A stretch of 64,000 nucleotides of DNA from a virus (IMGVR_UViG_3300037234_000386:1-64000), one strand, 5' to 3'; numbered from the stretch's first letter, positions 152-31,376 are shown. Notes: generated by a model from the sequence alone, not told the origin. Program-made: numbers and translations.

Positions 152-559
152 ATGAACGCTGAAGATCAATTAGTAATACTTATTGCTATCTGTGTTATTG
201 GAATGATAGCTGTGTATATTTTTAGACAGAAACAGAGAACGAACACTATTCAACAAAAGAGCGAGAAAAGAATACCCACTTGTGTAGCAGGGGGCGAACA
301 CATGAAATACTTAGCCACCCAAACAATAACTATCAAGAAACATTATGTAATTAGATATTATACCAAAGAAGGGACGAGTGATTGTATCTTGAGATGTCCA
401 TTTTATAATGGGCGTTTTGACGAGGCTACAATAGGAAGTATTAGATGTTACATGTGCCCAGACAGAGAGCATGATGATGAATTACAGCAACAGGGATACA
501 TAGTATGCTCAAACAGTGGTTTCCGTAACTATGAAAAAGCTAGAGTACTTAAAAATTGA
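152..559 (+). CDS. hypothetical protein, N-terminal TM helix, Cys-rich C-terminus
   Basis: ORF with hydrophobic N-terminus; tightly packed + strand operon. Confidence 0.6.
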   Translation: MNAEDQLVILIAICVIGMIAVYIFRQKQRTNTIQQKSEKRIPTCVAGGEHMKYLATQTITIKKHYVIRYYTKEGTSDCILRCPFYNGRFDEATIGSIRCYMCPDREHDDELQQQGYIVCSNSGFRNYEKARVLKN

Positions 560-743
560 TGGAATGTTTACAGATATATCAAAAGAACCAAGAACTAGCA
601 AAGGATATTATATAGTATCTGGATTTGTAGGAAAAGAGAAAGTGTTGCTTATGACAGATTATTGGGATGGAAATAAATGGGATAATATTACCAGAGAGGT
701 GTGTTATATCAATATACCACCCTCCCATATAGAAAGAGACTAA
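531..743 (+). CDS. hypothetical phage protein
   Basis: ORF 516..743; internal ATG (MKKLEY) is the more plausible start. Confidence 0.5.
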   Translation: MKKLEYLKIDGMFTDISKEPRTSKGYYIVSGFVGKEKVLLMTDYWDGNKWDNITREVCYINIPPSHIERD

Positions 744-769
744 GTAAATTATCTAATAAAAACTGAACT

Positions 770-973
770 ATGAAAACTTCAGATGTAAAATGCAATAAGA
801 CCTACATGTTAGGGGATGAGATGGTCACAGTAATCGAAAGGAAACATGGTCGATACACAAACAAACCCAATATGCAATCGGGTGAAATGTTCACAGGGAT
901 GAAAAGAGAGCAAAAGAAATTTCTGTTGAGTAATGGCGAAATTGTAAAGGCTCAAAGATTAACGGAAATATAA
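770..973 (+). CDS. hypothetical phage protein
   Basis: ATG after A-rich leader, operon context. Confidence 0.6.
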   Translation: MKTSDVKCNKTYMLGDEMVTVIERKHGRYTNKPNMQSGEMFTGMKREQKKFLLSNGEIVKAQRLTEI

Positions 974-994
974 AAAACACCTAAAGCACAAGCT

Positions 995-1393
995 ATGATA
1001 CTAGGATTTTTAAAGGGCTTTAACGTCAACGGCAGACGTAAGGAAACGGATTTCGAGAATAAGATAAAGAAGGGTATAAAACTCCATACCATTCGGGTTG
1101 ATGGAAAAAACAGGTGGAGAAAGGGAATGAAGATTCATTTCGCCACAGGAAACAGAACCCCTCAGTACAATTGCTTTAAAGAGGGAGTCTGCACAGGAAC
1201 TCAAACTATTGAGATAAGGGATCATTATTCTGTGTTGATAGGAGGCAGAATGCAAACCAACGATCAAATACAAGACATTGCTATAAACGATGGTTTTGAC
1301 ACCATTGAGGACTTTTGGGCATGGTTTGACCAATACACACCATTTACAGGAAAGATTATTCACTGGACTAATATTCGTTACGATGAATTTTAA
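995..1393 (+). CDS. ASCH/PUA-like domain protein
   Basis: KxHTIR motif, GMKIHF, and C-terminal A-x-x-DGF-x-x-x-EDF-x-x-WF, typical of phage ASCH proteins. Confidence 0.65.
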   Translation: MILGFLKGFNVNGRRKETDFENKIKKGIKLHTIRVDGKNRWRKGMKIHFATGNRTPQYNCFKEGVCTGTQTIEIRDHYSVLIGGRMQTNDQIQDIAINDGFDTIEDFWAWFDQYTPFTGKIIHWTNIRYDEF

Positions 1394-1403
1394 AAGATAA
1401 GCT

Positions 1404-1616
1404 ATGCAAAAGACAGTAAATTGCAAGAATGATACCGGCAGCTATAGTTTTACGATAACGACTTATACCGAAAAAGAAGATTTTGAAAAGGCTCACAAAA
1501 AACACACTTCTTCAAAGATTGCTAAGAGTTGCTTAGGATGGGTTTTTAGAGTAACTGATGGTAAGCGTTTACTAGAACAACACCAATGGTGCTATGGACA
1601 CATAAAGAAGGGATAA
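1404..1616 (+). CDS. hypothetical phage protein
   Basis: ORF in operon. Confidence 0.55.
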   Translation: MQKTVNCKNDTGSYSFTITTYTEKEDFEKAHKKHTSSKIAKSCLGWVFRVTDGKRLLEQHQWCYGHIKKG

Positions 1617-1619
1617 ATA

Positions 1620-1883
1620 ATGGAATTAGAATTTACAATACAGGAACTAAAGGATGCAATAAAAGCTACTCATCTTATTAAAATGCAGAATACTATAGAC
1701 GAAGTTATCAAACGCCTTCGCTATATAGAGAAAGAGCACAAGGAGGGTAAAGCTAAGTTTAGTGGAATTGAACATTTAACACTTGTATTACAATCTGGAT
1801 ACATAACAATGAGTATGTATTTAAAGATGCGAGAGATTATAGAAAATCCAGAAACACCTTACGAAATAACAATAAAATCATGA
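1620..1883 (+). CDS. hypothetical phage protein
   Basis: ORF; ATGA overlap with next gene. Confidence 0.6.
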   Translation: MELEFTIQELKDAIKATHLIKMQNTIDEVIKRLRYIEKEHKEGKAKFSGIEHLTLVLQSGYITMSMYLKMREIIENPETPYEITIKS

Positions 1884-2224
1884 TAGAAGAAAGAATAGGA
1901 ATGGAAAACAATGAGATTAAGCTTATCAAGAAGAATGATGAATTAGTTTCAAAGATAATGGAGCAGCGCAAGTTATCGGAAGATAAGGCTCAGTTAGTAA
2001 AGAGCATGATGCGCTATAACATGTGGACAATGAAGCAGTTTTGTGACCTTACGGGTTACAAGGAGAGCACAGTAACCAACCTCACCAGACCATCATACAA
2101 TAAAAACAATGATGTGATTACTCAATTAGACTTTTGTTATCCTCTCAGGTCGTTAGATCGCAAGGGACCAAAATTCATTGTTAGAAACGAGAAGAGTGAA
2201 CAATTCTTACCTAAAGTAGACTAA
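1880..2224 (+). CDS. hypothetical protein, possible HTH DNA-binding
   Basis: WTMKQFCDLTGYKESTVTNL resembles an HTH. Confidence 0.55.
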   Translation: MIEERIGMENNEIKLIKKNDELVSKIMEQRKLSEDKAQLVKSMMRYNMWTMKQFCDLTGYKESTVTNLTRPSYNKNNDVITQLDFCYPLRSLDRKGPKFIVRNEKSEQFLPKVD

Positions 2225-2227
2225 AAC

Positions 2228-4255
2228 ATGCCATTAGATTTTTCAGACTTAGGGATAAAGACAAAGAATGCAAAAAGATATGCTACCACGTGTCCAGAGT
2301 GCAGTCACAATAGAAAAAAGCAATCAGCACCATGCTTAACTGTTAACGATGAACCGAACAACAGATGGTATAAGTGCTGGAATTGTGGCTTTAGTGGAAA
2401 TTTAGATGTGCAGGACAAGTACGAAGCGGTCAGAGAGAAAGCCAAGATGCCCAATCTACGGAAAGCATTCACCCAAAAAGCTAAAGCATACATTAAAACT
2501 TGGGGCATTAGTGAAAAGACATTAAAGCATTTTGAAATTTACGAAGGAGTGATATTTGGTAAATTACAACTAAACTTTCCATTTTTCATGCATCATACAT
2601 TAGTAAATGTAAAACATCTAAATGCAGAATGGAAAAAAGGAGACAACTATTCCAAATGGTATCAACTATCCCTTAAAGAAGGGGAAGAGAGAAAGATACT
2701 CCCGTTTGGAATAAACAAGATAAAAACCCACGATGAAGATGGTGTTAAAATACCTAATTTAAGGCTCTTAATTACAGAAGGAGAAAAAGATTGTGTCACA
2801 TTTTTCGAGTGTGAATACGAAAATGTAATATCAGTTCCACAAGGAGCACCTTCACTTAACGCCAAAGATTTTAAGAAAGAATTTGCATGGTTAAATGATC
2901 CATATGTAAAAACTATCTTGGATGAAGTAGAATATTTCTATTTAGCCGTAGACGCAGATGAACCGGGTAAAAAGCTTTGCCATCATCTATCTGAAATACT
3001 AGGCAAAGAAAAATGTAGAATAATTCAATACCCCACAGGATACAAAGATATTAACGAAGTATTCATGGGCGATGAAAAAAAGGGACTAAAAGCATTGGGC
3101 AAAGATGGAGTTGACGAGTGTTATAAAAACATAAAATCTATTGCTATCAAGGGAATAATTAGGATTCATGAAGTTTATGACAAGATACTTGAAATAAGAA
3201 AGAATGGATTTGTTCCAGGATTTGGAGTTGGGGATAAAGATGTAGATTATCTTTTCACGATGAAGAGAAAGCTTTTGATGGTAATTACAGGCGTACCAGG
3301 GGCGGGTAAGAGCGTTTGGGCAAGGTGGTGGATTGTTAAAATGATAATTCACAATGTTGACTTGGACTTAAAATGGGCAATGTTTACACCAGAAAACAGA
3401 CCAGTAGAGAGGGAATATGCCAAAATACTAGAAGTTTTCACAGGGCAATTGCTAAAAGAGGATTCACACAATAGCATGAGTGATGATGTGCTAAGAAAAG
3501 CTTCTAGATGGATACATAAGCACATAATGATAATAGCTCCAGACAAATACAACCACGAATCTTTTGGAGGAACGGTTAATAATGATAACCACAATACTCT
3601 TGATTCTATTCATAAATACGTAATCTATTTAAAGAAGACAGAAAATATTTTTGGTTACATGATCGATGCTTGGAATAAGATAGAACACGAACAACCAAAA
3701 AATCAAACCGAAACACAATTTATAAGCAAACAGTTAGATAAGGTTCTTTCGTTTGGGGATTATTGGGATGTAGCAACTATTATAATAGCTCATCCTACAA
3801 AAATAGAGATGGTGGGAGAAAACTTTAAAATGCCTTCTCTTTATAGCATAAAGGGATCTTCAGCATGGAAAGAAAAAACAGATATTGGTGTAATCATACA
3901 TCGTTATAAGATGAAGAAGTTATCTGCAAAAGAAGCAATGGAGAAGGGTATTGACTTAGCTTCATGCGATGATGATGAAAAATGGGAAGTTATGCCAAAG
4001 GCACCTAATATTATATTTACGGAAAAAATTAAATTTGAAGAAACTGGGCATGAGAGCAGGGTAAAGATGGAGATGAGGGGATTTGGACAGTTCTTCGTAA
4101 TAAAGAATGGAGATCAAAAATCACTACCTCCACCAGAAGAGCCTAAAAAAAACACCAATAAAAGCAAGCAGCAAAAGATTGAGCACCCTGATTCTAGAAC
4201 GGAGTCTGTAGCTAAGGTATTTGACGATGATGAATGGGATGATTTGCCTTTCTAG
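2228..4255 (+). CDS. bifunctional DNA primase-helicase (T7 gp4/Twinkle-like)
   Basis: Zn finger CPEC...CWNC, TOPRIM ITEGEKD...DAD, SF4 Walker A GVPGAGKS, IDAWN, AHP, IKGS motifs. Confidence 0.93.
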   Translation: MPLDFSDLGIKTKNAKRYATTCPECSHNRKKQSAPCLTVNDEPNNRWYKCWNCGFSGNLDVQDKYEAVREKAKMPNLRKAFTQKAKAYIKTWGISEKTLKHFEIYEGVIFGKLQLNFPFFMHHTLVNVKHLNAEWKKGDNYSKWYQLSLKEGEERKILPFGINKIKTHDEDGVKIPNLRLLITEGEKDCVTFFECEYENVISVPQGAPSLNAKDFKKEFAWLNDPYVKTILDEVEYFYLAVDADEPGKKLCHHLSEILGKEKCRIIQYPTGYKDINEVFMGDEKKGLKALGKDGVDECYKNIKSIAIKGIIRIHEVYDKILEIRKNGFVPGFGVGDKDVDYLFTMKRKLLMVITGVPGAGKSVWARWWIVKMIIHNVDLDLKWAMFTPENRPVEREYAKILEVFTGQLLKEDSHNSMSDDVLRKASRWIHKHIMIIAPDKYNHESFGGTVNNDNHNTLDSIHKYVIYLKKTENIFGYMIDAWNKIEHEQPKNQTETQFISKQLDKVLSFGDYWDVATIIIAHPTKIEMVGENFKMPSLYSIKGSSAWKEKTDIGVIIHRYKMKKLSAKEAMEKGIDLASCDDDEKWEVMPKAPNIIFTEKIKFEETGHESRVKMEMRGFGQFFVIKNGDQKSLPPPEEPKKNTNKSKQQKIEHPDSRTESVAKVFDDDEWDDLPF

Positions 4256-4307
4256 CGCAGCAATAACCGAAACTAAAGCGTTTGGCGTAGTTGAGGTAAT
4301 GGAATGT

Positions 4308-4426
4308 AACGTTTAGCTAAGAATTGAAGCGGCTAAACTCGCAGTATTTAACGAATAGAGACTAATTAAATTGATTAATACAAACCTAGGCATGCGACAA
4401 CCCCGCTTTTATTTTTAGCTGTTGTT
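4308..4426 (+). repeat. attC-like site 1
   Basis: AAC GTTT AGCTAAGAATTGAAGCGG ... CCGCTTTTATTTTTAGCT GTT GTT. Confidence 0.85.
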
Positions 4427-4448
4427 ATAGCCTGTATTTTAGAAGATT

Positions 4449-4733
4449 ATGAAAACGAAAAGAATTTGGAAATTTGAATTAGAGACTACCGACAGACAAA
4501 CTGTAGCAATGCCAGAAAATGCGGAAATACTAACAGTGCAGACGCAAAATGAAACACCTTGCATATGGGCTATAGTTGAGCCTGAAAACAAGAAAGTAAG
4601 GCGAGTGTTTGAAATATTTGGCACAGGAAACCAAGTAAATTGTAATGAAGATACCGAGCGAAACTATATAGGTACATACCAATTGAGACAAGGTAGCTTA
4701 GTGTTTCATTTATTTGAAGATACCGCAATATAG
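4449..4733 (+). CDS. cassette 1 gene, conserved small phage protein
   Basis: Flanked by GTTATAGCCTGTATT / AATATAGGCTATAAC; IWKF...ILTVQ...WA...GTG...YIGT...VFHLFE pattern. Confidence 0.8.
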   Translation: MKTKRIWKFELETTDRQTVAMPENAEILTVQTQNETPCIWAIVEPENKKVRRVFEIFGTGNQVNCNEDTERNYIGTYQLRQGSLVFHLFEDTAI

Positions 4734-4738
4734 GCTAT

Positions 4739-5230
4739 AACGTGTGCATAAACCAAGTACGCAAGTTTAGATAGAATTATAATTGAAATACTAATTAAAA
4801 ATAAAAAAGCGATGGATTTTAAAAAAGAAATTATTAAGATTATGGTAGATGCTCAAGAAAAAGTAAAGATGGGCAGCGATGGTGATTACAGCCAAGAGGT
4901 TGCAGTATTAGCCGATGATTATGATGATGTAGCGGGAAAAATATATGAAGGACTTATAAAAAAGCTACAACACCACAGAGACACTACTATTGGCTTATAT
5001 GCTACTGATAAAGAAATAGGAAAACTCCTTCATTTATTTTGGCAAAGCAGCTCAGACGCTTGCCCATTAGAATGCGGCGAGGCTGAAAAGCAAGAGATTG
5101 AATTTGAGAAATGGGTTAAGGGTATTAGTTTTAGAATTGATTAAGCGTGTAGGCTTTTATTTTTAATTGCCTAAATAACCTAAGAACTTAAATTGAAAAC
5201 AACCCTAAGTATTGGGTTTGATGCGTTGTT
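4739..5230 (+). repeat. attC-like site 2 (gene in loop)
   Basis: AAC GTGT GCATAAACCAAGTAC ... GTATTGGGTTTGATGC GTT GTT; extra G in right arm. Confidence 0.8.
4812..5144 (+). CDS. cassette 2 loop gene, hypothetical
   Basis: ORF lies wholly between the arms of site 2. Confidence 0.75.
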   Translation: MDFKKEIIKIMVDAQEKVKMGSDGDYSQEVAVLADDYDDVAGKIYEGLIKKLQHHRDTTIGLYATDKEIGKLLHLFWQSSSDACPLECGEAEKQEIEFEKWVKGISFRID

Positions 5231-5253
5231 ATAAACTTTTAAAAAATACCCTT

Positions 5254-5394
5254 ATGGAAACTAAATACAGAGTGAGAATATTTCAAGATAACACTTATGA
5301 AGTTATAGAAAAAGAAACAGGCGACAGTATGTTTCAAGGAACATTAGCTGATTGCGAAGCGTGGATTAGATTAGAAGTAGGCGGGTATTTTTAA
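5254..5394 (+). CDS. cassette 2 second gene, 46 aa hypothetical
   Basis: ATG at 5254; flanked by GTTATAAACTTTTAAAAAATACCC / GGGTATTTTTAATTGTTTTATAAT. Confidence 0.65.
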   Translation: METKYRVRIFQDNTYEVIEKETGDSMFQGTLADCEAWIRLEVGGYF

Positions 5395-5403
5395 TTGTTT
5401 TAT

Positions 5404-5524
5404 AATGGCAAGTATAAGAATAGTGGCGTAATTAATAGAATAAATTTAACTTAAAAACAAATATTGATATGAAAAAAATAAACTTTAAGAACCTAAGTAT
5501 TAGACATTATTTTTATATAGTGTT
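5404..5524 (+). repeat. attC-like site 3
   Basis: AAT GGCAA GTATAAGAATAGTG ... CATTATTTTTATAT AGT GTT. Confidence 0.8.
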
Positions 5525-5786
5525 AAAAGCTTTTATTCAATTTCAGATTAACAATGGAATGTTTAAGCATCAATATTGCTTCGAGCGGGGGCAATGGCTT
5601 AAATACAATTGGAAAGCTAAAATAATGATTGATACTGCAATTAAAGATAAGCTTCACCCGAGGCAATTTTATAGATACTTATATAAATATCCAGATAGGA
5701 ATGTGGAATTTGACAACGAAGATAGCTGCTCTGCATTTTGGGTGCGAGGGCTTTACTTTTGGGAAAAGAAACCTAATTGCTTTTAA
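5469..5786 (+). CDS. cassette 3 gene, hypothetical
   Basis: Starts in the loop of site 3; its TAA stop coincides with the junction GCTTTTAAT. Confidence 0.7.
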   Translation: MKKINFKNLSIRHYFYIVLKAFIQFQINNGMFKHQYCFERGQWLKYNWKAKIMIDTAIKDKLHPRQFYRYLYKYPDRNVEFDNEDSCSAFWVRGLYFWEKKPNCF

Positions 5787-5905
5787 TGGTAAATGTATGA
5801 AACGGTGGGATTTGAAACACGAAACCGACAAATAAAATATAAATTTAAACAAAGCTAGTGGGCTAATAATTGCACCTTAACCCCACTGTTTTATGACATA
5901 TTGTT
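5785..5905 (+). repeat. attC-like site 4
   Basis: AAT GGTAA ATGTATGAAACGGTGGG ... CCCACTGTTTTATGACAT ATT GTT; extra G. Confidence 0.85.
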
Positions 5906-5922
5906 AAGGTGCGTTATTTATT

Positions 5923-6144
5923 ATGAAAAATGCAACTGCTGAAATTCATTTGAGTATGAATGTTGAATGCCCCCATTGTGAGGATGACATAAATTTACTT
6001 GAATTAACTGAACTGACGGATGACGGATGGATTTATAATAAAACAATGCCTGATGACCGAACATGGGGTTGTGAGGATTTTAGATACAAGCTACAATGTC
6101 CAAGCTGTAAAGAAAATTTTATGATTAAGGATGTAATTTATTAA
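5923..6144 (+). CDS. cassette 4 gene, Zn-ribbon protein
   Basis: CPHC...CPSC; flanked by GTTAAGGTGCGTTA / TAATGCACCCTAAC. Confidence 0.8.
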   Translation: MKNATAEIHLSMNVECPHCEDDINLLELTELTDDGWIYNKTMPDDRTWGCEDFRYKLQCPSCKENFMIKDVIY

Positions 6145-6152
6145 TGCACCCT

Positions 6153-6204
6153 AACGATGGTTGTAAGATTTCGTTGTTTTTCACAATGAATTTTACAACG
6201 TGTT
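6153..6204 (+). repeat. attC-like site 5 (shortest, ~52 nt)
   Basis: AAC GATG GTTGTAAGATTTCGTTG ... CAATGAATTTTACAAC GT GTT. Confidence 0.88.
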
Positions 6205-6277
6205 AGCTGACTGGTGCGAATAATTTAGTACAAACTTAAATACGAAAAACAAACAAAAATATTTTAAATTTTTAGCG

Positions 6278-6862
6278 ATGGAAGAAAAAATACTGTATTG
6301 TGGGATGGCAGATGATATTCTGACACCAATGATTTTAGTCCCAAATTTTACTAATCTTTTTGTGATTGACATATTTGATATTGCTTTTGCGAAAGAAAGA
6401 ACTTGGGATGGACAGAAAAAAGATATACTACAATGTTTGAAAAATGGCAATAATGAAAAATCGCATCATAGAGAAGTTTATTTGTATTATGACAAAAGTA
6501 CACCAACATATTCAATAGATGAGAGATGCGACATAATAGAGGAAGTTGAGAATGGTAAAATTTGGAGAGTAAAATTTACATATAATGACATTGAAAGGCA
6601 GTTGATTTATTTCCATCACACAAATTTTATTGCAAATTGGGATAATGAAATTAAAGATATTTCTCATCTAATGTGTATGGGTGCAGAATTCCCAATAGAA
6701 AAAAAAGTACTCAATAAAATGATAAAGGAAAGATGCAATGAGAAATGCAAATTTTTCGACCAATTTGCAGAATTTGACAATACGATAAAGGCAAATGCAA
6801 TAGGAAGAGATATTTTTATCAATGACTTAGAAAATGTATTATGTGCGGTGGGGAAAATTTAA
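6278..6862 (+). CDS. cassette 5 gene, hypothetical (possible Rossmann-like fold)
   Basis: 194 aa ORF; segment bounded by GTTAGCTG / CAGCTAAT. Confidence 0.75.
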   Translation: MEEKILYCGMADDILTPMILVPNFTNLFVIDIFDIAFAKERTWDGQKKDILQCLKNGNNEKSHHREVYLYYDKSTPTYSIDERCDIIEEVENGKIWRVKFTYNDIERQLIYFHHTNFIANWDNEIKDISHLMCMGAEFPIEKKVLNKMIKERCNEKCKFFDQFAEFDNTIKANAIGRDIFINDLENVLCAVGKI

Positions 6863-6914
6863 AATATTTTGAACCGAAATGTTAATACGAAGAACGAACG
6901 TAGCACTTGCAGCT

Positions 6915-7103
6915 AATGGACAAGGCTAAGATTAGTTGCGTATTATTAAAAAACAAATAAAATAAGTACATATGAGTAATTTAACAGAAGACCAAATAAA
7001 TGCAGTAATTGATTGGATGAATAACTGGGAACAATTGAAAGATACTGTAATTCCGATACGTTTCAAAGAGGATTGGACTAAGCAATTAAATTTAGCTGAT
7101 GTT
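6915..7103 (+). repeat. attC-like site 6
   Basis: AAT GGACAA GGCTAAGATTAGTTGC ... GCAATTAAATTTAGCT GAT GTT. Confidence 0.82.
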
Positions 7104-7262
7104 AACCACAGTATTTTTAAACCACCATTAGGATTGAAACCTAAATTTATACACGACCAACATCGACAAAGTGAAATAATGGCTGCAATAGCAAGATATT
7201 TAGATGTAGGTAAAACACCACCTAAAGAATGGGCGATTGAATTTGCCTCATATTGTGGTTAA
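6972..7262 (+). CDS. cassette 6 gene, hypothetical
   Basis: Reads through the right arm of site 6 (KQLNLADVNHS); stop TAA lies in TGTGGTTAAC. Confidence 0.75.
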   Translation: MSNLTEDQINAVIDWMNNWEQLKDTVIPIRFKEDWTKQLNLADVNHSIFKPPLGLKPKFIHDQHRQSEIMAAIARYLDVGKTPPKEWAIEFASYCG

Positions 7263-7392
7263 CGTGTTGTATAAACTCAGTAACGTAATTAACCGCAACC
7301 GCTCAATTGAAAAACTACTGATTCCGTTTTTATTTTTTAGGGAGGGTTTTATTTTTTTTACCTTTATATTAGGATAATAAATATATTACCCT

Positions 7393-7400
7393 TATATTTG
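7393..7400 (+). promoter_or_regulatory. Bacteroidota sigma-A -7 box inside cassette 7
   Basis: TATATTTG matches TAnnTTTG, 22 nt before ATG 7423. Confidence 0.55.
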
Positions 7401-7422
7401 GGTATAATTAAAAAGCTAAAAA

Positions 7423-7623
7423 ATGAATTACGTAAAAACAATAAAGACAACACTTAGAAAAACTAACAACACTTCAGGGGCTATGGATGATTATTTTACC
7501 TCTAAAAAGGAATTGGATAAAATTGATTTAGCTTTTTATAAAAGTGGAAGTTTAATATTTATAGAAGATGAAAATCAAGTTTATAGAATACACCAAAAAG
7601 AAGTTTTAACGCTTAAAAAATAA
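7423..7623 (+). CDS. cassette 7 loop gene A, hypothetical
   Basis: ORF downstream of promoter box. Confidence 0.7.
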   Translation: MNYVKTIKTTLRKTNNTSGAMDDYFTSKKELDKIDLAFYKSGSLIFIEDENQVYRIHQKEVLTLKK

Positions 7624-7626
7624 ATA

Positions 7627-7815
7627 ATGCTTGAGTGGCTAATAAAAAACAAAGATTCGTTAAGTCTTAGAGGCATAGAACGACAATTAGACATGCCAGA
7701 TACTACGTTGGTAAAAGCTGTAAACGGTAGCCAAAACCTACCTAAAAAGTGGATTGAACCGCTAAATAAATTCCTAATGGTTTTGCAAAAACCAACGAGC
7801 GTTGGCAAAAAATAA
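7627..7815 (+). CDS. cassette 7 loop gene B, small HTH protein
   Basis: LSLRGIERQLDMPDTTLVKAVNG is an XRE/Cro-like HTH. Confidence 0.7.
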   Translation: MLEWLIKNKDSLSLRGIERQLDMPDTTLVKAVNGSQNLPKKWIEPLNKFLMVLQKPTSVGKK

Positions 7816-7915
7816 AAACATTAGCTGTGAATTTCACTATGAAAAACTTAGCAGTTATTGATTTTATACGTTGTTGTATTGAACGACTAAAAGGAGTGGC
7901 GTTTTAATGCAATAC

Positions 7916-8037
7916 AACGTTGAGTATATAGCAAATTGCTTATTAATAAATAAAACAAAAACTTTGAATATGATTACAAAATATGTAAATACTTGGAGAC
8001 TTAAAAAATGGCAAAGCAATTTGCTATATACATTGTT
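7916..8037 (+). repeat. attC-like site 8
   Basis: Perfect 18-bp stem GTATATAGCAAATTGCTT / AAGCAATTTGCTATATAC between AAC and GTT. Confidence 0.9.
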
Positions 8038-8209
8038 AGGGTTAGTTTACTCTACAAAGATTGTAAAGGGTGATAAAATTAGATGTTATGGAATAGGTTA
8101 CCCTCATTGGAAAGGCGAGGAATTTGAATGTACACTAGACTTTAAGGATGGAACAATAGGTGTAAGAAATGCAGTAAGGGTAGCCGAGAAAGATTTTAGG
8201 AAACTATAA
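7970..8209 (+). CDS. cassette 8 gene, hypothetical
   Basis: In-frame ATG 7970 after A-rich leader in the loop; segment GTTAGGGTTAGTTTA / TAAATTAACCCTAAC. Confidence 0.65.
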   Translation: MITKYVNTWRLKKWQSNLLYTLLGLVYSTKIVKGDKIRCYGIGYPHWKGEEFECTLDFKDGTIGVRNAVRVAEKDFRKL

Positions 8210-8218
8210 ATTAACCCT

Positions 8219-8496
8219 AACGTTTATTTAAGGGCAGTGCTAAATAACGAGAGAATTTAAAACGTGAATTATAAATTAACAATTTAGAAGCGATGGCAGA
8301 TAATAGAATATATGGATATTACTGGGTGAAAATAAATGAAAAGTGGGAACCCGCATTATGGAATAGTAAAAAGCAGTGGATATTGATCGGATTTGAAAAA
8401 CCTGCTTTAGTGGATGAGGTTGGTGAACTTATTATGCGTGATGGCAAAAAGCCAACAAGCGAGCCTGATACTCAGGCATTGCCTTTAAATGTTGTT
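8219..8496 (+). repeat. attC-like site 9
   Basis: AAC GTTT ATTTAAGGGCAGTGCT ... GGCATTGCCTTTAAAT GTT GTT. Confidence 0.85.
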
Positions 8497-8691
8497 AGCT
8501 TTAACGAAGCCTGTGAATGTGATAACACCGAAGTTTGCGGTATATGCTTTCGTAAAAAAGGATATGAAATAATTGATAACGAACTAAAATTCACAGGCGT
8601 AGAGGAGGTTTGCGATAAATGCGAAGAACCATTTAGCTACAAGGGAGAATATAGGAACATTTGCTTTAAATGCGAAGATGATTTTATTTAG
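8293..8691 (+). CDS. cassette 9 gene: small beta domain plus Cys-rich Zn-binding domain
   Basis: GYYWVK N-terminal domain, linker encoded by the hairpin arm (QALPLNVVS), then CEC/CGIC/CDKC/CFKC. Confidence 0.75.
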   Translation: MADNRIYGYYWVKINEKWEPALWNSKKQWILIGFEKPALVDEVGELIMRDGKKPTSEPDTQALPLNVVSFNEACECDNTEVCGICFRKKGYEIIDNELKFTGVEEVCDKCEEPFSYKGEYRNICFKCEDDFI

Positions 8692-8704
8692 CAAACTTAA
8701 AGCT

Positions 8705-9168
8705 AACGGAAATAATAAGAAGCGTACGGAATAACCTGAGAATTTAAAACGAGTAATAATTTAAAATAAAAAAAAGCGATGGAAAATTTTGGAAAATTTA
8801 TGACACTAGTAATGGCTATGATTATTAGCCCGATTGTAAGCGGTTTTGTAACTATGAAGTTATGGTTTTGGTTTATGGTTCCAATATTTGGAATGAACCC
8901 ACTTAGATTAGTTGAAGCGATTGGATTAATGTTTTTAATTAATTACCTGAAGTTTAGAAAAACAAAGCCTACGGATAAGGATAAGTTTTGGCTTGAATTT
9001 ACAGAAAGTATAATTACTGTGATACTTATAGCTGCTGTGGCTTTGTTTAGCGGTTGGATAGTACAGAAGTTTATGTAAAGTGTGCGTAGGCTTTTTATTT
9101 TAAATTGCCTCAGTTTACACGAATGAAGCCACGAGCTACGGCACTAAGTATGCTTTTTATTTAGTGTT
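8705..9168 (+). repeat. attC-like site 10 (gene in loop)
   Basis: AAC GGAAAT AATAAGAAGCGTAC ... GTATGCTTTTTATTT AGT GTT; followed by gene-less segment GTTGTACGC...GCGTACAAC. Confidence 0.8.
8779..9078 (+). CDS. cassette 10 loop gene, membrane protein
   Basis: Three hydrophobic segments, LWFWFMVPIFG motif. Confidence 0.8.
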   Translation: MENFGKFMTLVMAMIISPIVSGFVTMKLWFWFMVPIFGMNPLRLVEAIGLMFLINYLKFRKTKPTDKDKFWLEFTESIITVILIAAVALFSGWIVQKFM

Positions 9169-9243
9169 GTACGCTGTGCTTTTTATAAGATGCTGAGAGG
9201 GTAATTATTAAGAACCAATAAAAACCTTTTTAGCATTGCGTAC

Positions 9244-9450
9244 AACGTGGATGGGCTATGAGTAGTATTTTTAACGAATTTGAAACACTAAACTAAAATT
9301 ATACATAATGATAACAGATGCTAAGATAAAACAAGGAATGGAGAAAGCTTATAAAAAAGCAGGACATAATACCTACTTCAGCAATGGTTTTGAAGCGGGG
9401 GTAAGGTTTGCACTAGAACAAGTTAAAAATATTACTTATGAGCCTGTGTT
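9244..9450 (+). repeat. attC-like site 11
   Basis: AAC GTGG ATGGGCTATGAGTAGTATTTTTAAC ... GTTAAAAATATTACTTATGAGCCTGT GTT; extra G. Confidence 0.9.
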
Positions 9451-9592
9451 AAGCGTTGTTGATTCAGATGCAAAAGAAGAGAAAGAAAAAATAATAACAG
9501 CAATACTTTATGAGCACATGGATCATCACAGCGGAAAAGTTTCAGAATTAGATTTTGATGCAGTTGTTGCAGACGTAATTAAACATACGTAA
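9308..9592 (+). CDS. cassette 11 gene, hypothetical
   Basis: Reads through right arm (VKNITYEPVLSVV); segment GTTAAGCGTTGTT / AATAACGCTTAAC. Confidence 0.75.
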   Translation: MITDAKIKQGMEKAYKKAGHNTYFSNGFEAGVRFALEQVKNITYEPVLSVVDSDAKEEKEKIITAILYEHMDHHSGKVSELDFDAVVADVIKHT

Positions 9593-9593
9593 T

Positions 9594-9631
9594 AACGCTT
9601 AACATATATTATCCTTAATGTAGTTAATCAA
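9594..9631 (-). other. putative attI-like primary recombination site
   Basis: Last AAC (9601-9603) is not followed by a hairpin. The minus strand reads GATA-ATATAT-GTT, the same xWTA-N6-GTT geometry as the hairpin arms, and sits next to the recombinase start. Confidence 0.6.
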
Positions 9632-10465
9632 TTGACACAAAAATACTTAAAAATGGAATTGACAGAGTTATTAAAAAAATATGACAACAACTTAAACCTT
9701 AAATATGATTCTAAAAATACTAAAGATGGTTATAGGAATGCGATCAATAGATATATAAAGGACAATGATAGGGTTTACAGAATGTCTACCGACAATATAA
9801 AGCAATATATGTCTAATTTTAGAAAAATATACTCTAACTCTTATTTTAATATTATGGGATCATCATTAATTTTACTTTACCGAGATGTGTTAAATCAACC
9901 ATTAAAAATGAAGTGGTTTAAGTCTATAAAAACAGAACGAAAGTTTCATCGGATAATAACTAATGATGAATTTATTCAGATGATGAAAAATGCTAAAAAT
10001 TTAAAACATAAGGTGATTTTAATAATACTTTATTCGACAGGAATAAGAGAAACTGAGTTAATAAACATTAAACTCTCAGATATTGATTTTAACTCTAAGA
10101 GAATTTTTATCAAATCGTTAAAGAATGGTAAAAACAGATATTCTCCACTAAAAGAATTAACTGAGCGTTACATTAAAGCATATATCAGAGGATGGAGCCC
10201 TAAAGAGTATCTTTTGAATGGTCAAAATACATTAAAATACTCCACAAGCAGTGTATTTCAAATGATAAAAAAGGTTTCTGAAGGTAAAGTTAATCCTCAC
10301 TTATTTCGTCATACTTTCGCCACACTTATGATTGAACATGAAGATGTGTTTTACACACAAGAATTATTAGGGCAAAGAAATCTTAATAGTACATTACATT
10401 ACAATCACATTTCTCAAGAAAGATTAATTAAATCATTTAATCCACTAGACAAAATAGCAAGTTAA
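9632..10465 (+). CDS. tyrosine recombinase (integron-integrase-related, lacks IntI-specific insertion)
   Basis: YSTGIR, KNGKNR, HLFRHTFAT, ELLGQ, catalytic Y in TLHYNH, C-terminal NPLD; alternative start ATG 9653. Confidence 0.93.
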   Translation: MTQKYLKMELTELLKKYDNNLNLKYDSKNTKDGYRNAINRYIKDNDRVYRMSTDNIKQYMSNFRKIYSNSYFNIMGSSLILLYRDVLNQPLKMKWFKSIKTERKFHRIITNDEFIQMMKNAKNLKHKVILIILYSTGIRETELINIKLSDIDFNSKRIFIKSLKNGKNRYSPLKELTERYIKAYIRGWSPKEYLLNGQNTLKYSTSSVFQMIKKVSEGKVNPHLFRHTFATLMIEHEDVFYTQELLGQRNLNSTLHYNHISQERLIKSFNPLDKIAS

Positions 10466-10467
10466 TT

Positions 10468-14396: not shown

Positions 14397-15083
14397 ATGT
14401 GCAGGAGGATCGAATATTTATCAGGAAAAATTATTGGAGAAAATAACATTGTCTACATAAAACCAGCTCCATATTATTTTTTTAAAGGAGGCAAAATGAG
14501 ACAGGATGAGTTCCTTTGTTTTTGTGGAAATAAATTTATTTCATCGCCATCAAAAGTTAAAAGTGGACATACTAGTTGTTGTGGATGCTTGGGAAAAGAA
14601 CGTTTTAAAAATAGGTTTTTAAAACACGGACTATCAGGAAGCCGACTTTACAAAAGATGGATAGATATAAAAAAGAGAACCAATAACCCAAATCACAAAC
14701 ACTACGGACATTATGGAGGACGGGGTATCAAGATGTGTGATGAGTGGATTAATGATCCCAAGGCATTTATTGACTACTGCAAAACCTTGGAGGGATGTAA
14801 TGATAAAACATTAAGTTTAGATAGGAAAGTTAATGATGGAAACTATGAACCTGGTAATATTAGGTTTACGAGTGCAAAGATACAAGCATTAAATAGGCGA
14901 GTGGCGAAAAACAACACAGCAAAAAAATCAGGAGTTCATTATAATAAAAACAGTAAAAAATGGAATGCCTGTATATATGTTGACGGAAAATGCAAGAATC
15001 TTTATTACGGTGATTCCAAAGAAGAAGCAATTGCAGCAAGAGTAGAATTTGAAAAAGTATATTTTAAAGAACTAGGAGTATAA
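14397..15083 (+). CDS. HNH-type homing endonuclease with AP2-like C-terminus
   Basis: SCCGC, RLYKRW, YGGRGIKMCDEW, SLDRKVNDGNYEPGNIRF, GVHY...KWNACI. Confidence 0.85.
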   Translation: MCRRIEYLSGKIIGENNIVYIKPAPYYFFKGGKMRQDEFLCFCGNKFISSPSKVKSGHTSCCGCLGKERFKNRFLKHGLSGSRLYKRWIDIKKRTNNPNHKHYGHYGGRGIKMCDEWINDPKAFIDYCKTLEGCNDKTLSLDRKVNDGNYEPGNIRFTSAKIQALNRRVAKNNTAKKSGVHYNKNSKKWNACIYVDGKCKNLYYGDSKEEAIAARVEFEKVYFKELGV

Positions 15084-15103
15084 ATTTAAAACAAGTAAAT
15101 ATT

Positions 15104-16621
15104 ATGGAAACAGGATTAGTAAAATCATCATTTAACCTTCCTAAATTTGTGGAAGACGCGTATTCAACTATCGAAAAAATGAATCAATTTGCTGATATAT
15201 TATTAGAGAGTAAATTAGTTCCTGATCATTTTTTTGAAAAGGGATCTGATAGAAAACCTGATTATAACAAAGGAAAAAGAGCCTCTGTTGTAATTGTTTT
15301 ATTACAATCTCAACAATTAGGGATTCCTCCATTGACGGGACTTCAGCAAATAATACCAGTTAATGGATTATTGTCTCTAAAAGGTGATCTATGTAAAACT
15401 ATGATATTCTCCTCTGGAAAGTTAAAACAAGATTCTTGGATAGAATCTGAATCTGGAGACATTGAATCAGGCACTTTAAAAATGACTATCACAGCGGCAA
15501 GGTCTGATAATGGTATGGCTTTAACTAGATCGTTTTCTATTGATGATGCAAAAAGAGCCGGTTTATGGGTTACTGATGATGATCTTAAAGGAAATGATGG
15601 TTGGAAGAAAAAGAAGTCGGCTTGGTATCGTCACCCTAAGCGTATGCTATTATACAGATGTCTAGGTTTTATATCTCGTGATTTATTTACAGATATTATT
15701 TTTAATATGTACACCACCGAAGAGGCAATGGACATTCCACAGGATGAAACTTTAATCATAGAGAACTCCAATGGAACACAAGTGACAATTCCTGATAAAG
15801 AGTTTAGCCAAGAACGCAGCCAACAATTGACAGGCAAGGCAGCGGACAAGATTGCAAAGGAAGAAGCTAAAATAGTCCCTCCGGAAGAAGCCGTGGTGGT
15901 AACAGAGGAAGCCCCAATTAATCAGTCTGAGATGGACTTTGAAAATCAGGTTGGTACTGGTACTGGCAAAATAGAAGAATCTAAGACGGTTGAGAATACA
16001 ACAGGACCTCAGCCTCATAAGTACACCGAAGATGTATTAATGGCGATGGATATTGGTGATGTAAGAAAGATCATAAGTTCGGATGTTGCCATGTTTGAAG
16101 CACAAGATAAACTACCTGGTACTAACACGAATAAGAAACTTCGATTAATCATTCTTAACAACCAGAAAGGCGAATTGAATGCTTATTGCAAGGCTAACGG
16201 TGTTGAATTGGAAGCTTTTGCTACAGAAGTTGAAGAACCTCAAAAGGATGTTCCTGAAGAAAAAGTACCTGAGCAAAGAGTATCTGACAAATTACCACAA
16301 CCTACACCAACACCAGAAAAGAAAGAGGTAGCTCCAGAAGACCACAAGATACCAGAGAAACCTACACAGGACTTTCCTTTAGGAGAAAATAAGTTTGGGA
16401 TAACAGTAGTGGAAATTCCAGAAGGAGATGAAGCGCGTTCTTTTGATGATGGAAAAACCCTATATGAAGAATTGGAGTCTATTGCGGGATTGGATAACAA
16501 AAGGTATGCTCATCTTATTGGGACTACTTTTACGTTTTTAGCAAAATATACTGATAGGGAGCAGTTGTGCTTTAAAGCCAGCAAGGCACAAATAAATAGT
16601 TTGCTAAATAGCATGAAATAG
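15104..16621 (+). CDS. RecT/Red-beta-like single-strand annealing protein with long acidic tail
   Basis: GIPPLTGLQQI, FSIDDAKRAGL, W-x-x-HPKRMLLYR, MYTTEE. Confidence 0.78.
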   Translation: METGLVKSSFNLPKFVEDAYSTIEKMNQFADILLESKLVPDHFFEKGSDRKPDYNKGKRASVVIVLLQSQQLGIPPLTGLQQIIPVNGLLSLKGDLCKTMIFSSGKLKQDSWIESESGDIESGTLKMTITAARSDNGMALTRSFSIDDAKRAGLWVTDDDLKGNDGWKKKKSAWYRHPKRMLLYRCLGFISRDLFTDIIFNMYTTEEAMDIPQDETLIIENSNGTQVTIPDKEFSQERSQQLTGKAADKIAKEEAKIVPPEEAVVVTEEAPINQSEMDFENQVGTGTGKIEESKTVENTTGPQPHKYTEDVLMAMDIGDVRKIISSDVAMFEAQDKLPGTNTNKKLRLIILNNQKGELNAYCKANGVELEAFATEVEEPQKDVPEEKVPEQRVSDKLPQPTPTPEKKEVAPEDHKIPEKPTQDFPLGENKFGITVVEIPEGDEARSFDDGKTLYEELESIAGLDNKRYAHLIGTTFTFLAKYTDREQLCFKASKAQINSLLNSMK

Positions 16622-29021: not shown

Positions 29022-29468
29022 ATGACTAAGAACGAAATTATTAATAAGATATGTGAGAAGCATTATCCTCAACCAGAAAGAGGTTCTGAGTCTATTAAAA
29101 CGACCAATGCTAGGTGTGGGTTAAAGCTGTTGTTAGAGCAAAAGTGGGTAGTGTTCCCTTTGTGTTTAGAGGACATTACTAAGATAATTAAAGCACACTA
29201 TCCTAATAAAGTAACAACTTCACATACCGAAGTTGTTGCACTAGGTAAAAATATTATGAAACTTATTGGGGATATAAAAGAAGTTAACGAAGAGATTAAG
29301 GCACATAATGCTACAAGCGGAGACTTACCGCTACACGAGTCTCATATGTGCTATAAAGATGGCCACGCTATGTTACCGGTATATTCTTTTCAGCACGAAA
29401 AGCTTGCTCATGGACTAAATAAGTGTTACAGGTGTGGATGGGAAGAGGAGTGGCAGTATGACTTCTAA
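29022..29468 (+). CDS. hypothetical protein
   Basis: Operon ORF. Confidence 0.6.
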   Translation: MTKNEIINKICEKHYPQPERGSESIKTTNARCGLKLLLEQKWVVFPLCLEDITKIIKAHYPNKVTTSHTEVVALGKNIMKLIGDIKEVNEEIKAHNATSGDLPLHESHMCYKDGHAMLPVYSFQHEKLAHGLNKCYRCGWEEEWQYDF

Positions 29469-29673
29469 AAGGTGCAAAAAGGTTGAGTATGATTCATTGA
29501 ATTTGGCTAAACGTAAGGTGCAAAGCATTAATACTTACAACAAGTCTCACAATATTGAGGAAAGGTTTTATGCATACAAATGTCCTCATTGCAAATCATG
29601 CCACATCACCCACATGAAGAAGTCGGAATACAAAACAAAGAAGAAAAATAAATTTGCCAATAAAAATAAATAG
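29458..29673 (+). CDS. small Zn-binding protein
   Basis: CKK..Y...A....YAYKCPHCKSCHITH. Confidence 0.65.
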   Translation: MTSKRCKKVEYDSLNLAKRKVQSINTYNKSHNIEERFYAYKCPHCKSCHITHMKKSEYKTKKKNKFANKNK

Positions 29674-29726
29674 CAATAAATTAGTAATCAATTAATATTA
29701 GTATAAATCTAAAAACAAAAAAGCGT

Positions 29727-30308
29727 ATGAAAAGGGTAATTTTATCTTTAAGCTTTGTGTTGCTAATGATTACGGCATTGTCCGTAATGGATGTTGGACC
29801 GCCAATTATCCACAATGCAGCACAGCAAGAAATGGTGATGGATTGTCAACTGGATGTTGATATGAATATTATCACACAAATCGAAGCACAGCCGGTATTC
29901 CTTATTAATGAAGCGGAGGTTGAGATATCCTTCGGTGATTTATATGGCTTGACTCTAATTGATAATGAAGCCAATAAATGCAATAGTGCAATGTTCACCA
30001 ATACAACTTACGATAGTTCTGGTGGTGCTAACATGATTAAAGGAATTAACACAGATTATCTAAAGAAAGCAGGGATCGAAGTCACCCATAGCTATAATAA
30101 TGGAGACTCGCAGTCTAGCTTATATGAGGATAACGGATGCTTACAGCACTTGAAGAAAGGCGGGTCGGTAATCTACTCAGTTTCTACAAGCGATATATAT
30201 AATACTGCTAACCTAATGGGACTTTTTCCGATACTTTCATATAAGTATAAGGATAACAATTTTAAATGCGATTTCGACTTCAGCATGAATAAACTATTAG
30301 TCATGTAG
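29727..30308 (+). CDS. secreted or membrane-anchored hypothetical protein
   Basis: Signal-peptide-like N-terminus. Confidence 0.55.
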   Translation: MKRVILSLSFVLLMITALSVMDVGPPIIHNAAQQEMVMDCQLDVDMNIITQIEAQPVFLINEAEVEISFGDLYGLTLIDNEANKCNSAMFTNTTYDSSGGANMIKGINTDYLKKAGIEVTHSYNNGDSQSSLYEDNGCLQHLKKGGSVIYSVSTSDIYNTANLMGLFPILSYKYKDNNFKCDFDFSMNKLLVM

Positions 30309-30695: not shown

Positions 30696-31376
30696 ATGGG
30701 AAAAACAACCGAAGTAAGAGCCAAGGCTGAACTAAAAGTATCATTCTCTCACGTGATACCAGCAAAGAAGAAGGGTGAGAAAACAAGAGGTTCTGGAGTA
30801 AAGGGATCTGGTAAGGTGATAAGGTATATTCAGATTGAACCTCTGGAGAGTGAAGTTTTGAAGGAGCGCATCAAGGCTGCTGAATCTATTTTAAAAAATG
30901 GAGCAGGAAAAGGGCTGTCTAAAAGCGAGAAAGCTAAAATCGTTAAGAAGATAACTGTTGATTTAAAAGCTGAACTTGATGATGCACACAAGGATGCTAT
31001 TGATGTGCTAACGCAGAATCACGAGGAGGAGATTGTTAAGCTTAAAGATGAAATCACTCGATTAACGACACCGCCAGAAGGTGGGCCAACAGAAATTATA
31101 GAAGAAGAGGTTGTAGAGGAAGAAATTATTTCCACCCCTTCTGTAATAGCAAAGTTCGAATGTACTTATAATGAACAGCTAGAAAGTGATGAAGAGCACA
31201 ACGAAGTAAACTTAACCGCTGTAATTGAAGGAAGCGAAGAAAACAAGTCTTTCTCAAAATTCACACCAGCTGCAAATGTTTACATGGTTATTTCGAAAGA
31301 AACTCCTGCTCATGAATTTTTCGAAAAAGGAGTGGAATATTTTGCAAGCTTCACGAAGGCAGAAAAGAAAAAATAA
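30696..31376 (+). CDS. hypothetical protein with conserved C-terminal EENKSFSKFTP domain
   Basis: Basic N-terminus, coiled coil, conserved small phage domain. Confidence 0.75.
   Translation: MGKTTEVRAKAELKVSFSHVIPAKKKGEKTRGSGVKGSGKVIRYIQIEPLESEVLKERIKAAESILKNGAGKGLSKSEKAKIVKKITVDLKAELDDAHKDAIDVLTQNHEEEIVKLKDEITRLTTPPEGGPTEIIEEEVVEEEIISTPSVIAKFECTYNEQLESDEEHNEVNLTAVIEGSEENKSFSKFTPAANVYMVISKETPAHEFFEKGVEYFASFTKAEKKK

Follow-up and report, generated by a model that had tools for sequence, protein, structure and literature searches.

Integrons encode the integrase IntI, which carries an extra insertion in its catalytic domain, and hold an attI site beside the integrase gene. Their attC sites are about 57-141 nucleotides (nt) long and lie outside coding sequence, the cassette genes point away from the divergently transcribed integrase gene, and the bottom strand is the one recombined. 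In shufflons (Rci, pilV of plasmid R64) and in the tail-fibre segments of phages Mu and P1, the sites lie inside the coding region and supply alternative C-terminal segments to a constant N-terminal part. XerCD, an enzyme without the IntI insertion, uses the folded single-stranded attP site of the CTX phage. The locus considered here shares traits with each of these systems. It lies in a marine phage, in a stretch of 64,000 nt (IMGVR_UViG_3300037234_000386:1-64000; hereafter the window) that makes up the first 64 kb of a virus record (72.3 kb in length, terminal repeats included) and that is in parts similar to Cellulophaga phages. Small genes are found inside, or translated through, the inverted repeats of an array at 4308-9603, upstream of a tyrosine recombinase gene, and the whole is on balance best read as an integron-like cassette array run by the phage's own Xer-type recombinase. 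To judge from aligned relatives, whole cassettes move with boundaries in or next to the core triplet AAC, and the two parts of a cassette, termed loop and segment, also re-assort at an arm between them (L'/R'), so that in-frame chimeric small proteins result.

Clusters of attC-like sites without an integrase (CALINs) have been reported in virulent phages, including Polaribacter phage P12002L, with methyltransferase cassettes, and one P12002L site recombined with IntI1 in an assay (Qi et al., 2023; PMC9892861). The passages of that study on these sites treat them as classical short attC sites without an enzyme, and name no phage recombinase, gene-bearing loops or read-through open reading frames (ORFs) (PMC9892861). 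The CALIN label would not fit the present array, to which a recombinase gene is adjacent. A scan of the P12002L genome (L049) found arms of the present type at 30952-31120, 29237-30011 and 14622-15197; one pair lies inside gp37 and one around a methylase gene, and no recombinase is annotated. One arm pair in P12002L surrounds gp24, a lone opposite-strand gene in the middle of the structural module. At the level of literature listings and abstracts, no description was found of a phage array with an Xer-type recombinase, or of genes inside or translated through recombination hairpins.

The array of the window comprises 12 AAC/AAT junctions and 11 GTT arms, which delimit 11 cassettes. The 9-11-nt box that belongs to each GTT (R') is the reverse complement of the box at the next AAC, and this outer pair closes the segment. 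A second, inner stem, in which the bases right after AAC (L'') pair with the bases right before the next GTT (L'), closes the loop, which is 46-609 nt long in the window. The spacers, read by eye, are unequal: those that follow AAC have 4-6 nt, those that precede GTT 2-3 nt. In 4200-9700 there are nine perfect 9-nt GTT...AAC box pairs (seven serial sites and two A/T-rich extras), compared with two in the other 58.5 kb; Markov shuffles of the array region (n=500) gave a mean of 0.83 pairs and a maximum of six. Two further outer pairs have one mismatch each; outer pairs 5229/5407 and 6202/6916 were assigned by eye.

The inner stems played no part in locating the sites and therefore provide an independent test of this layout. 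The nine arrays supplied 64 non-redundant cassettes, in which the 28 nt that follow AAC were paired with the 28 nt that precede GTT. True partners reached a mean of -14.1 kcal/mol against -6.5 for wrong partners, and the own partner ranked first of 64 in 41 of the 64 cassettes; for the sites of the window it was first in six of ten and first or second in eight. Some long loops are closed by very stable stems (588 nt at -20.2, 612 nt at -19.1 and 1256 nt at -14.3 kcal/mol). In 61 of 65 cassettes, the coding strand gives more stable stems than the other strand.

The same architecture recurs beside related recombinases. The enzyme has ~40 close metagenomic homologs of ~270 amino acids (aa) each. 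As a single query it alone found no viral locus; an alignment of its homologs retrieved eight viral contigs (L008-L015, 42-57% identity), and a metagenome scan yielded short contigs only, plus two duplicates of loci already found. Serial GTT...AAC box pairs lie directly upstream of the recombinase in all eight; in L011, 17 of the 18 perfect pairs fall within 245-6949 and the recombinase gene starts at 6999. The last AAC precedes the start of the recombinase match by 49-59 nt in the eight related loci and ATG 9653 by 49 nt in the window, and in the related loci it is followed by a similar A/T-rich motif without a partner arm. Loop lengths range from 40 to 1256 nt over the arrays and fall into recurring classes of about 47, 80, 116, 190, 268, 340 and 600 nt.

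Where the genes sit was surveyed at 79 curated sites in nine arrays, with 69 non-redundant ATG ORFs of at least 70 aa. Loops hold 14 of these ORFs and segments 22, whereas 31 run across the GTT arm and two across AAC (binomial p 1.3e-7). Read-through of the arm is thus the commonest layout in this family of recombinase-linked arrays and is not peculiar to the phage of the window. The phase across the arm (n=31) is biased: GTT is a codon in 23 cases, its G is the third codon base in six, and two use another phase. Of 72 stop-to-junction distances measured, 19 put the stop codon on the TAA of TAAC and eight put it 13 nt ahead of AAC. Accordingly, the arm codes for a recurring peptide, for example ..GLHLAC-VSGS, ..ALPLNV-VSF or ..LYT-LL, and the linker follows the pattern x-L-x-L/I-x-x-V-S/N.

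Much of the anatomy had been described in an earlier reading of the window (the original prediction), and most of it stands. Its two cargo slots per cassette, loop and segment, hold as anatomy at the 79 sites of the nine arrays. The AAC-to-GTT span that it gave as ~52 to ~615 nt measures 46 nt at site 5 (52 with the cores) to 609 nt at site 7 (615 with the cores), the whole genes that it placed in the loops of sites 2, 7 and 10 are four in number (4812-5144, 7423-7623, 7627-7815 and 8779-9078), and the outside segments of cassettes 7 and 10, of 46 and 81 nt, hold no ORF. For the ORFs that it saw starting in a loop at 5469, 6972, 7970, 8293 and 9308, the arm peptides RHYFYIVL, KQLNLADV, SNLLYTLL, QALPLNVV and KNITYEPVL were reproduced, and the two stops that it assigned to the junction TAA (5786 and 7262) show a stop-to-AAC distance of 1. 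None of these five ORFs matched Pfam or PHROGs. That no plausible ORF crosses an AAC holds for the window with start 7970, but the longest ATG frame, 7907-8209, would cross AAC 7918 by four codons; start 7970 gives 21 residues before the arm, as in other ORFs of 114-117-nt loops.

Movement of whole cassettes can be followed between relatives. In the near-identical phages L012 and L013, a 458-nt unit (47-nt loop plus 411-nt segment) lies beside the recombinase in the former and mid-array in the latter; the comparison narrows its right end down to TAAC (4 nt) and its left end to a stretch of 17 nt that stops 3 nt past AAC. The cassette of ORF 6972 is present in four arrays (the window, L037, L039 and L040). 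In the first three, both neighbours are unrelated, and identity starts right after AAC and stops at TAAC; in L040, a differing flank is seen on the left side only. Similarly, gp30 of Cellulophaga phage phi18:1 is 87.5% identical to window 7951-8221, and the identity stops at AAC 8221. On these comparisons, the mobile unit runs from AAC to AAC and takes loop and segment together. The crossover AA|C of the original prediction is borne out in that the boundaries, both in L012/L013 and for the ORF 6972 cassette, fall in or next to AAC, but the resolution is TAAC and not a single bond. Related arrays differ by the presence, absence and position of units, not by inversion.

Two layouts in other phage sequences depart from this pattern. 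At L042 7600-8230, TAAC junctions are followed directly by a purine-rich, ribosome-binding-like stretch without an L'' arm, which may be a variant site layout or a decayed array. In phi18:1 (L050), a ~60-nt direct repeat (3938-3998 and 4389-4450) flanks gp30 and a downstream hairpin; the repeat is a copy of the 3' end of the preceding VRR-NUC gene, which suggests that gp30 was inserted by a different, homology-based route.

The adjacent enzyme scores 96.5 bits against the integron integrase model TIGR02249 (cut-off 265) and finds its best family in XerA at 135.7 bits (cut-off 220). In the PDB, IntI4 (2a3v) aligns only to recombinase residues 14-170, and the best chain is an XerC-like protein. 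By these comparisons, the recombinase is not an IntI and is of Xer type. The array nevertheless resembles an integron in its position next to a tyrosine recombinase gene, near which a putative, partner-less site is placed as an attI would be; in its imperfect inverted repeats with AAC/GTT cores, inner and outer box pairs and unequal spacers; in its discrete mobile cassettes bounded at the core (here to TAAC); and in outer boxes that match each other within a cassette but not those of the neighbour, which is the signature of core exchange. It differs in the enzyme, a 270-aa Xer-type protein without membership of the IntI subfamily, and in its loops, which span 40-1256 nt (up to 609 nt in the window) and carry genes, with 31 of 69 ORFs through the GTT arm and 14 in loops. 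The genes and the recombinase all lie on the + strand, the genes pointing toward the recombinase, the better-folding strand is the coding strand, and the host is a phage.

The other systems are more distant. As in shufflons, recombination sites lie in the coding region and protein segments are joined in frame; however, shufflons invert fixed local segments via short duplex repeats, whereas the phage arms all have one orientation, the parts travel in horizontally exchanged cassettes, and both N and C parts vary. With XerCD and CTX, the locus shares an Xer-type enzyme and a folded single-strand hairpin substrate, a chemistry that needs no IntI, but there a single site integrates a whole phage genome and no gene-cassette array is involved. 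The promoter stem-loop repeats of T4-type phages also stand between small early genes at the borders of exchanged modules; they are conserved sequences on which homologous recombination acts, and neither a dedicated recombinase nor covarying boxes belong to them.

Since exchange at AAC always carries a loop along with its segment, their separation calls for a second point of exchange, in the L'/R' arm. The original prediction proposed that loop and segment domains can be fused in frame into chimeric proteins and that the two halves of the read-through ORFs be searched separately. Half-by-half searches covered ORFs 6972, 8293 and 9308, and all three have half-only homologs that break at the arm-coded linker. 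For ORF 9308, similarity in all five homologs is confined to the first ~46 residues (65-80% identity) and reaches as far as the arm-coded ..EQVKNxxxxPV; the C parts that follow are unrelated and differ in length. Among 29 homologs of ORF 6972, 21 cover at least 89%, one is a truncated record and seven are half-only: five keep the N half up to KQLNLAxV and then differ, and two have an unrelated N part followed by ..AIVSHS and the same C half. An exhaustive search of cluster representatives with ORF 8293 (P0158-P0160) gave two that match the C half alone, starting a few residues ahead of the arm, and one that matches the N half alone, with no full-length representative besides ORF 8293 itself.

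Two of these cases can be followed in the DNA, where halves are joined to other partners at the arm. In L043, the sequence is that of L037 from AAC to the end of the R' box, the loop included; what follows is unrelated, and this segment is closed by a matching box of its own and TAAC. In L042, an N part of 107 residues is unrelated, and identity to L037 extends from 7 nt before GTT to CTAAC. In the half-only homologs, the other half is complete and unrelated, measures 30-107 aa and has a start or stop of its own, and in every case seen the breakpoint falls within ~20 nt of GTT. A reading without chimeras, suggested by 35 read-through ORFs whose N and C parts show almost no cross-similarity, was overturned by the database searches, and the view that loops and segments never separate is ruled out by the DNA of L042 and L043. 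In the structure model of ORF 6972 (predicted local distance difference test, pLDDT, 64; below 50 at residues 42-52), the arm stretch lies in a low-confidence linker, which is too weak to serve as evidence.

A single sequencing run, probably of the source sample, holds the stretch as contigs, whose joints are hints from co-occurring relatives and not independent support. Among the joints listed, one contig diverges from the window 13 nt past GTT 8035, and one merges with it 27 nt ahead of GTT 9448. In a further contig, the arms of site 8 are kept and the 91-nt loop interior (7933-8025, including start codon 7970) is replaced by 22 other letters.

In the proposed mechanism, the recombination site would be split between two strands of a stem. 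Strand 1, the crossover strand, would consist of the end box of one cassette, AAC and the start box L'' of the next; strand 2, lying 40 to ~1250 nt downstream, would consist of L', 2-3 nt, GTT and box R', and would remain uncut when whole cassettes move. On the folded coding strand, the stem would pinch the cassette so that loop and segment form its two lobes. As strand 2 is left intact, its position relative to a gene is free, before, after or inside; the commonest position is inside, where it would be read in fixed phase as a short linker. The recombinase would carry out the AAC exchange on folded single-stranded DNA, as IntI does. Exchange at the arm would be a second strand exchange between two folded sites, that is, a swap of hairpin tips, or else an event on the opposite strand, and loop cargo would be replaced at a further A/T-rich inverted repeat. 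It is possible, and is put forward tentatively, that one and the same Xer-type enzyme both moves cassettes at AAC and swaps hairpin tips at the L'/R' arm, recombining N and C modules of small early, probably counter-defence, proteins in frame and in a common phase, while a third, nested level swaps loop genes.

Several observations weigh against this scheme. The activity of the recombinase, the folding of the single strand and the bond that is cleaved are inferred from sequence. Three junctions of the window read AAT and two of its outer pairs are weak. The own inner-stem partner ranks first in only eight of 21 loops of at least 300 nt, the other 13 not being first, so that part of the long-loop sites may have decayed or been parsed incorrectly; in the window, inner stems are weakest at the loops that bear genes (-9.0, -10.3 and -9.7 kcal/mol; ranks 7, 2 and 2). 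The halves often stay together, as in the 21 full-length homologs of ORF 6972, and full-length homologs in L038 and L041 have no recognisable boxes. phi18:1 gp30 is likewise full length, with a degenerate arm (GTT reads ATT) and no L'' arm. The N domains of ORFs 6972 and 9308 occur in other architectures in which no arm was seen (L044-L048 and L033-L036); in L032, the N domain is followed by a GTTA stretch. DNA context covers the two chimeras only, and the structure model of ORF 8293 (pLDDT 55; below 50 at 52-85) places the arm stretch in a low-confidence linker, again too weak as evidence.

The serious rival to enzymatic exchange at the arm is homology. The recombinase might move whole cassettes only, and the chimeras might arise by homologous recombination or template switching between similar 20-30-nt arms during co-infection. 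Mosaicism through short homologies is an established feature of phages. A consensus is common to the arms of different cassettes, and the R' boxes of L037 and L043 match at 11 of 12 positions, close enough for microhomology; the same N domains are also joined to other partners in loci where no arm was seen. The closeness of every breakpoint to GTT and the phase bias across the arm (23 of 31 in one phase, as expected if exchange is frequent enough for selection) speak against it without being decisive. Exchange driven by homology is regarded as unlikely, yet is to be taken seriously.

A less probable alternative is that the two-part genes are ancestral single genes, in which the arm arose in, or invaded, a flexible linker; the halves would then not be mobile modules, and the half-only homologs would be products of decay or ORFs miscalled on short contigs. 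The predominance of full-length homologs of ORF 6972, the box-less ones in L038 and L041 and the full-length gp30 agree with this, and many database proteins come from ~1-kb contigs. Against it stand the complete, unrelated other halves of the half-only homologs, the matching box and TAAC that end the unrelated segment of L043, the 107-aa frame that forms the unrelated N part of L042, and the C halves of the five ORF 9308 homologs, all of which differ. This origin is improbable.

The inverted repeats might instead be regulatory or RNA-level elements (terminators, processing sites) between early genes that mark mosaic boundaries, like the stem-loop repeats of T4-type phages, the recombinase being an unrelated ordinary integrase. 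G-T pairs make the coding strand the better-folding one, which is compatible with RNA as well, and small early-region genes with repeats between them fit such a role. Yet the box sequences vary by cassette and covary in pairs instead of forming one conserved regulatory sequence, half of the arms lie inside ORFs, and arrays always abut the recombinase at a fixed distance and are absent where it is absent. An Rfam search gave no match. Terminator-like sites (4 vs 2.1 +/- 1.3 in shuffles) and promoter-like sites (25 vs 27.1 +/- 5.0) are not enriched, so that an interpretation of the arms as plain terminators was dropped, and a regulatory role is very improbable. Chance matches, for which the A/T-rich composition of the window and the two A/T-rich extras among the nine perfect pairs might plead, are excluded for practical purposes by the shuffles, by the inner stems as a test independent of the outer boxes, and by the same architecture in eight other contigs.

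Returning to the integron-like array, a further level of exchange seems to exist within the loops. A second A/T-rich inverted repeat surrounds the whole genes that lie in loops, one half of it close upstream of the start codon and the other close downstream of the stop. Together with 23 nt on its 5' side and 27 nt on its 3' side, gene 4812-5144 is 79% identical to L015 7255-7640, where this unit, repeat included, lies between different inner and outer arms; in a source-sample contig, 4814 is joined to 5149 and the gene body is missing. L011 2760-3428 and L013 9259-9951 are alike over the ~95 nt that follow AAC and over their final 150 nt, of which an 80-nt segment forms part, while the cargo between the A/T-rich inverted repeats is unrelated, two small ORFs in one and a SpoU methylase in the other. 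The loop slot thus seems to have its own borders.

Gene-free segments of ~80 nt occur at window 9166-9246, at L010 5811-5890, 6506-6585 and 7711-7790, and at L011 2307-2387 and 3349-3428. Common to the five in L010 and L011 is a conserved core that has an inner stem and a bulge on one side; the window copy lacks this core. Such a segment may be a filler hairpin or a putative binding site.

In the window, the order on the + strand is a primase-helicase gene (2228-4255), 14 small genes and the tyrosine recombinase gene (Table 1). Two related viral contigs, L002 and L003, encode a primase 58% identical to that of the window, followed by one or two small genes and directly by homologs of window genes 10468, 10664 and 11152. 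They lack both the recombinase and the whole array block: 4256-10467 has no counterpart there, while its flanks are conserved. Compared with these contigs, the block behaves as a single insertion or a hypervariable region.

Table 1. Coordinates of the array, its cassettes, the recombinase gene and related features (window positions unless a contig is named; inner stems in kcal/mol, ranks out of 64)
Feature	Position	Strand	Details
Junctions (last base)	4310, 4741, 5407 (AAT), 5787 (AAT), 6155, 6916 (AAT), 7263, 7918, 8221, 8707, 9246, 9603		
GTT arms (start)	4424, 5229, 5522, 5903, 6202, 7101, 7873, 8035, 8494, 9166, 9448		
First AAC junction, left end of array	4308..4310	+	inside block 4256-10467, which is absent from L002/L003
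Cassette 1	4311..4741	+	loop 113 nt; GTT 4424; segment 318 nt with gene 4449-4733 (DUF7352)
Cassette 2	4742..5407	+	loop 487 nt with whole gene 4812-5144; GTT 5229; segment 179 nt with small ORF 5254-5394; outer pair weak, ends AAT; inner stem -9.0, rank 7
Cassette 3	5408..5787	+	loop 114 nt; GTT 5522; segment 266 nt; ORF 5469-5786 through arm, 17 aa before arm; stop is junction TAA; inner stem weak, rank 22
Cassette 4	5788..6155	+	loop 115 nt; GTT 5903; segment 253 nt with gene 5923-6144; inner stem rank 1
Cassette 5	6156..6916	+	shortest loop, 46 nt; GTT 6202; segment 715 nt with gene 6278-6862; outer pair weak, by eye; inner stem rank 1
Cassette 6	6917..7263	+	loop 184 nt; GTT 7101; segment 163 nt; ORF 6972-7262 through arm, 43 aa before arm, GTT a codon; stop is TAA of TAAC
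Cassette 7	7264..7918	+	longest loop, 609 nt, with genes 7423-7623 and 7627-7815; GTT 7873; segment 46 nt, gene-free; inner stem -10.3, rank 2
Cassette 8	7919..8221	+	loop 116 nt closed by 18-nt perfect inverted repeat; GTT 8035; segment 187 nt; ORF 7970-8209 through arm, 21 aa before arm; inner stem -20.5, rank 1
Cassette 9	8222..8707	+	loop 272 nt; GTT 8494; segment 214 nt; ORF 8293-8691 through arm, 67 aa before arm; inner stem rank 1
Cassette 10	8708..9246	+	loop 458 nt with membrane-protein gene 8779-9078 (phrog_2169); GTT 9166; segment 81 nt, gene-free; inner stem -9.7, rank 2
Cassette 11	9247..9603	+	loop 201 nt; GTT 9448; segment 156 nt; ORF 9308-9592 through arm, 46 aa before arm; inner stem rank 1
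A/T-rich stretch after last AAC, no partner arm	9604..9652	+	attI-like by position; same position and similar motif in 8 related loci
Tyrosine recombinase	9632..10465	+	start TTG 9632, or ATG 9653 giving 270 aa; Xer-type; Pfam Phage_integrase and SAM-like N domain
Nested repeat units	4789-5171, 8760-9106; L015 7255-7640; L011 2845-3277 vs L013 9346-9800		
Scanned cargo in relatives	L008 5385-7644; L010 6720-7418; L012 5266-7110, 8704-9492; L013 9330-9785; L014 2955-3881		

The cargo of the relatives bears on what the array is for. Ten large cassette proteins compared with Pfam comprise six DNA methyltransferases, one SpoU methylase, one RtcB ligase and two without a match; in two methylase cassettes, the Pfam domain begins after the arm, and the loop gives the start and ~20 leader residues. 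Given that DNA methyltransferases are found in this cargo together with an RNA methylase and an RtcB ligase, the array probably serves as a toolbox of counter-defence, and host-takeover genes would fit as well.

Integron sites are taken to be short, non-coding and in need of the IntI-specific insertion, whereas the phage array would follow the same logic with a plain Xer-type enzyme, at sites whose loops of up to ~1.2 kb carry genes and whose one arm is read as protein. The loop length that a folded recombination site tolerates thereby becomes directly testable. If exchange at the arm is enzymatic, it would be a dedicated mechanism for building new proteins from parts and would explain the fast diversification of small early phage proteins, and such in-frame swapping of modules would be the counterpart, in prokaryotes, of the shuffling of phase-compatible exons. 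Besides whole genes, the system seems to shuffle parts of proteins.

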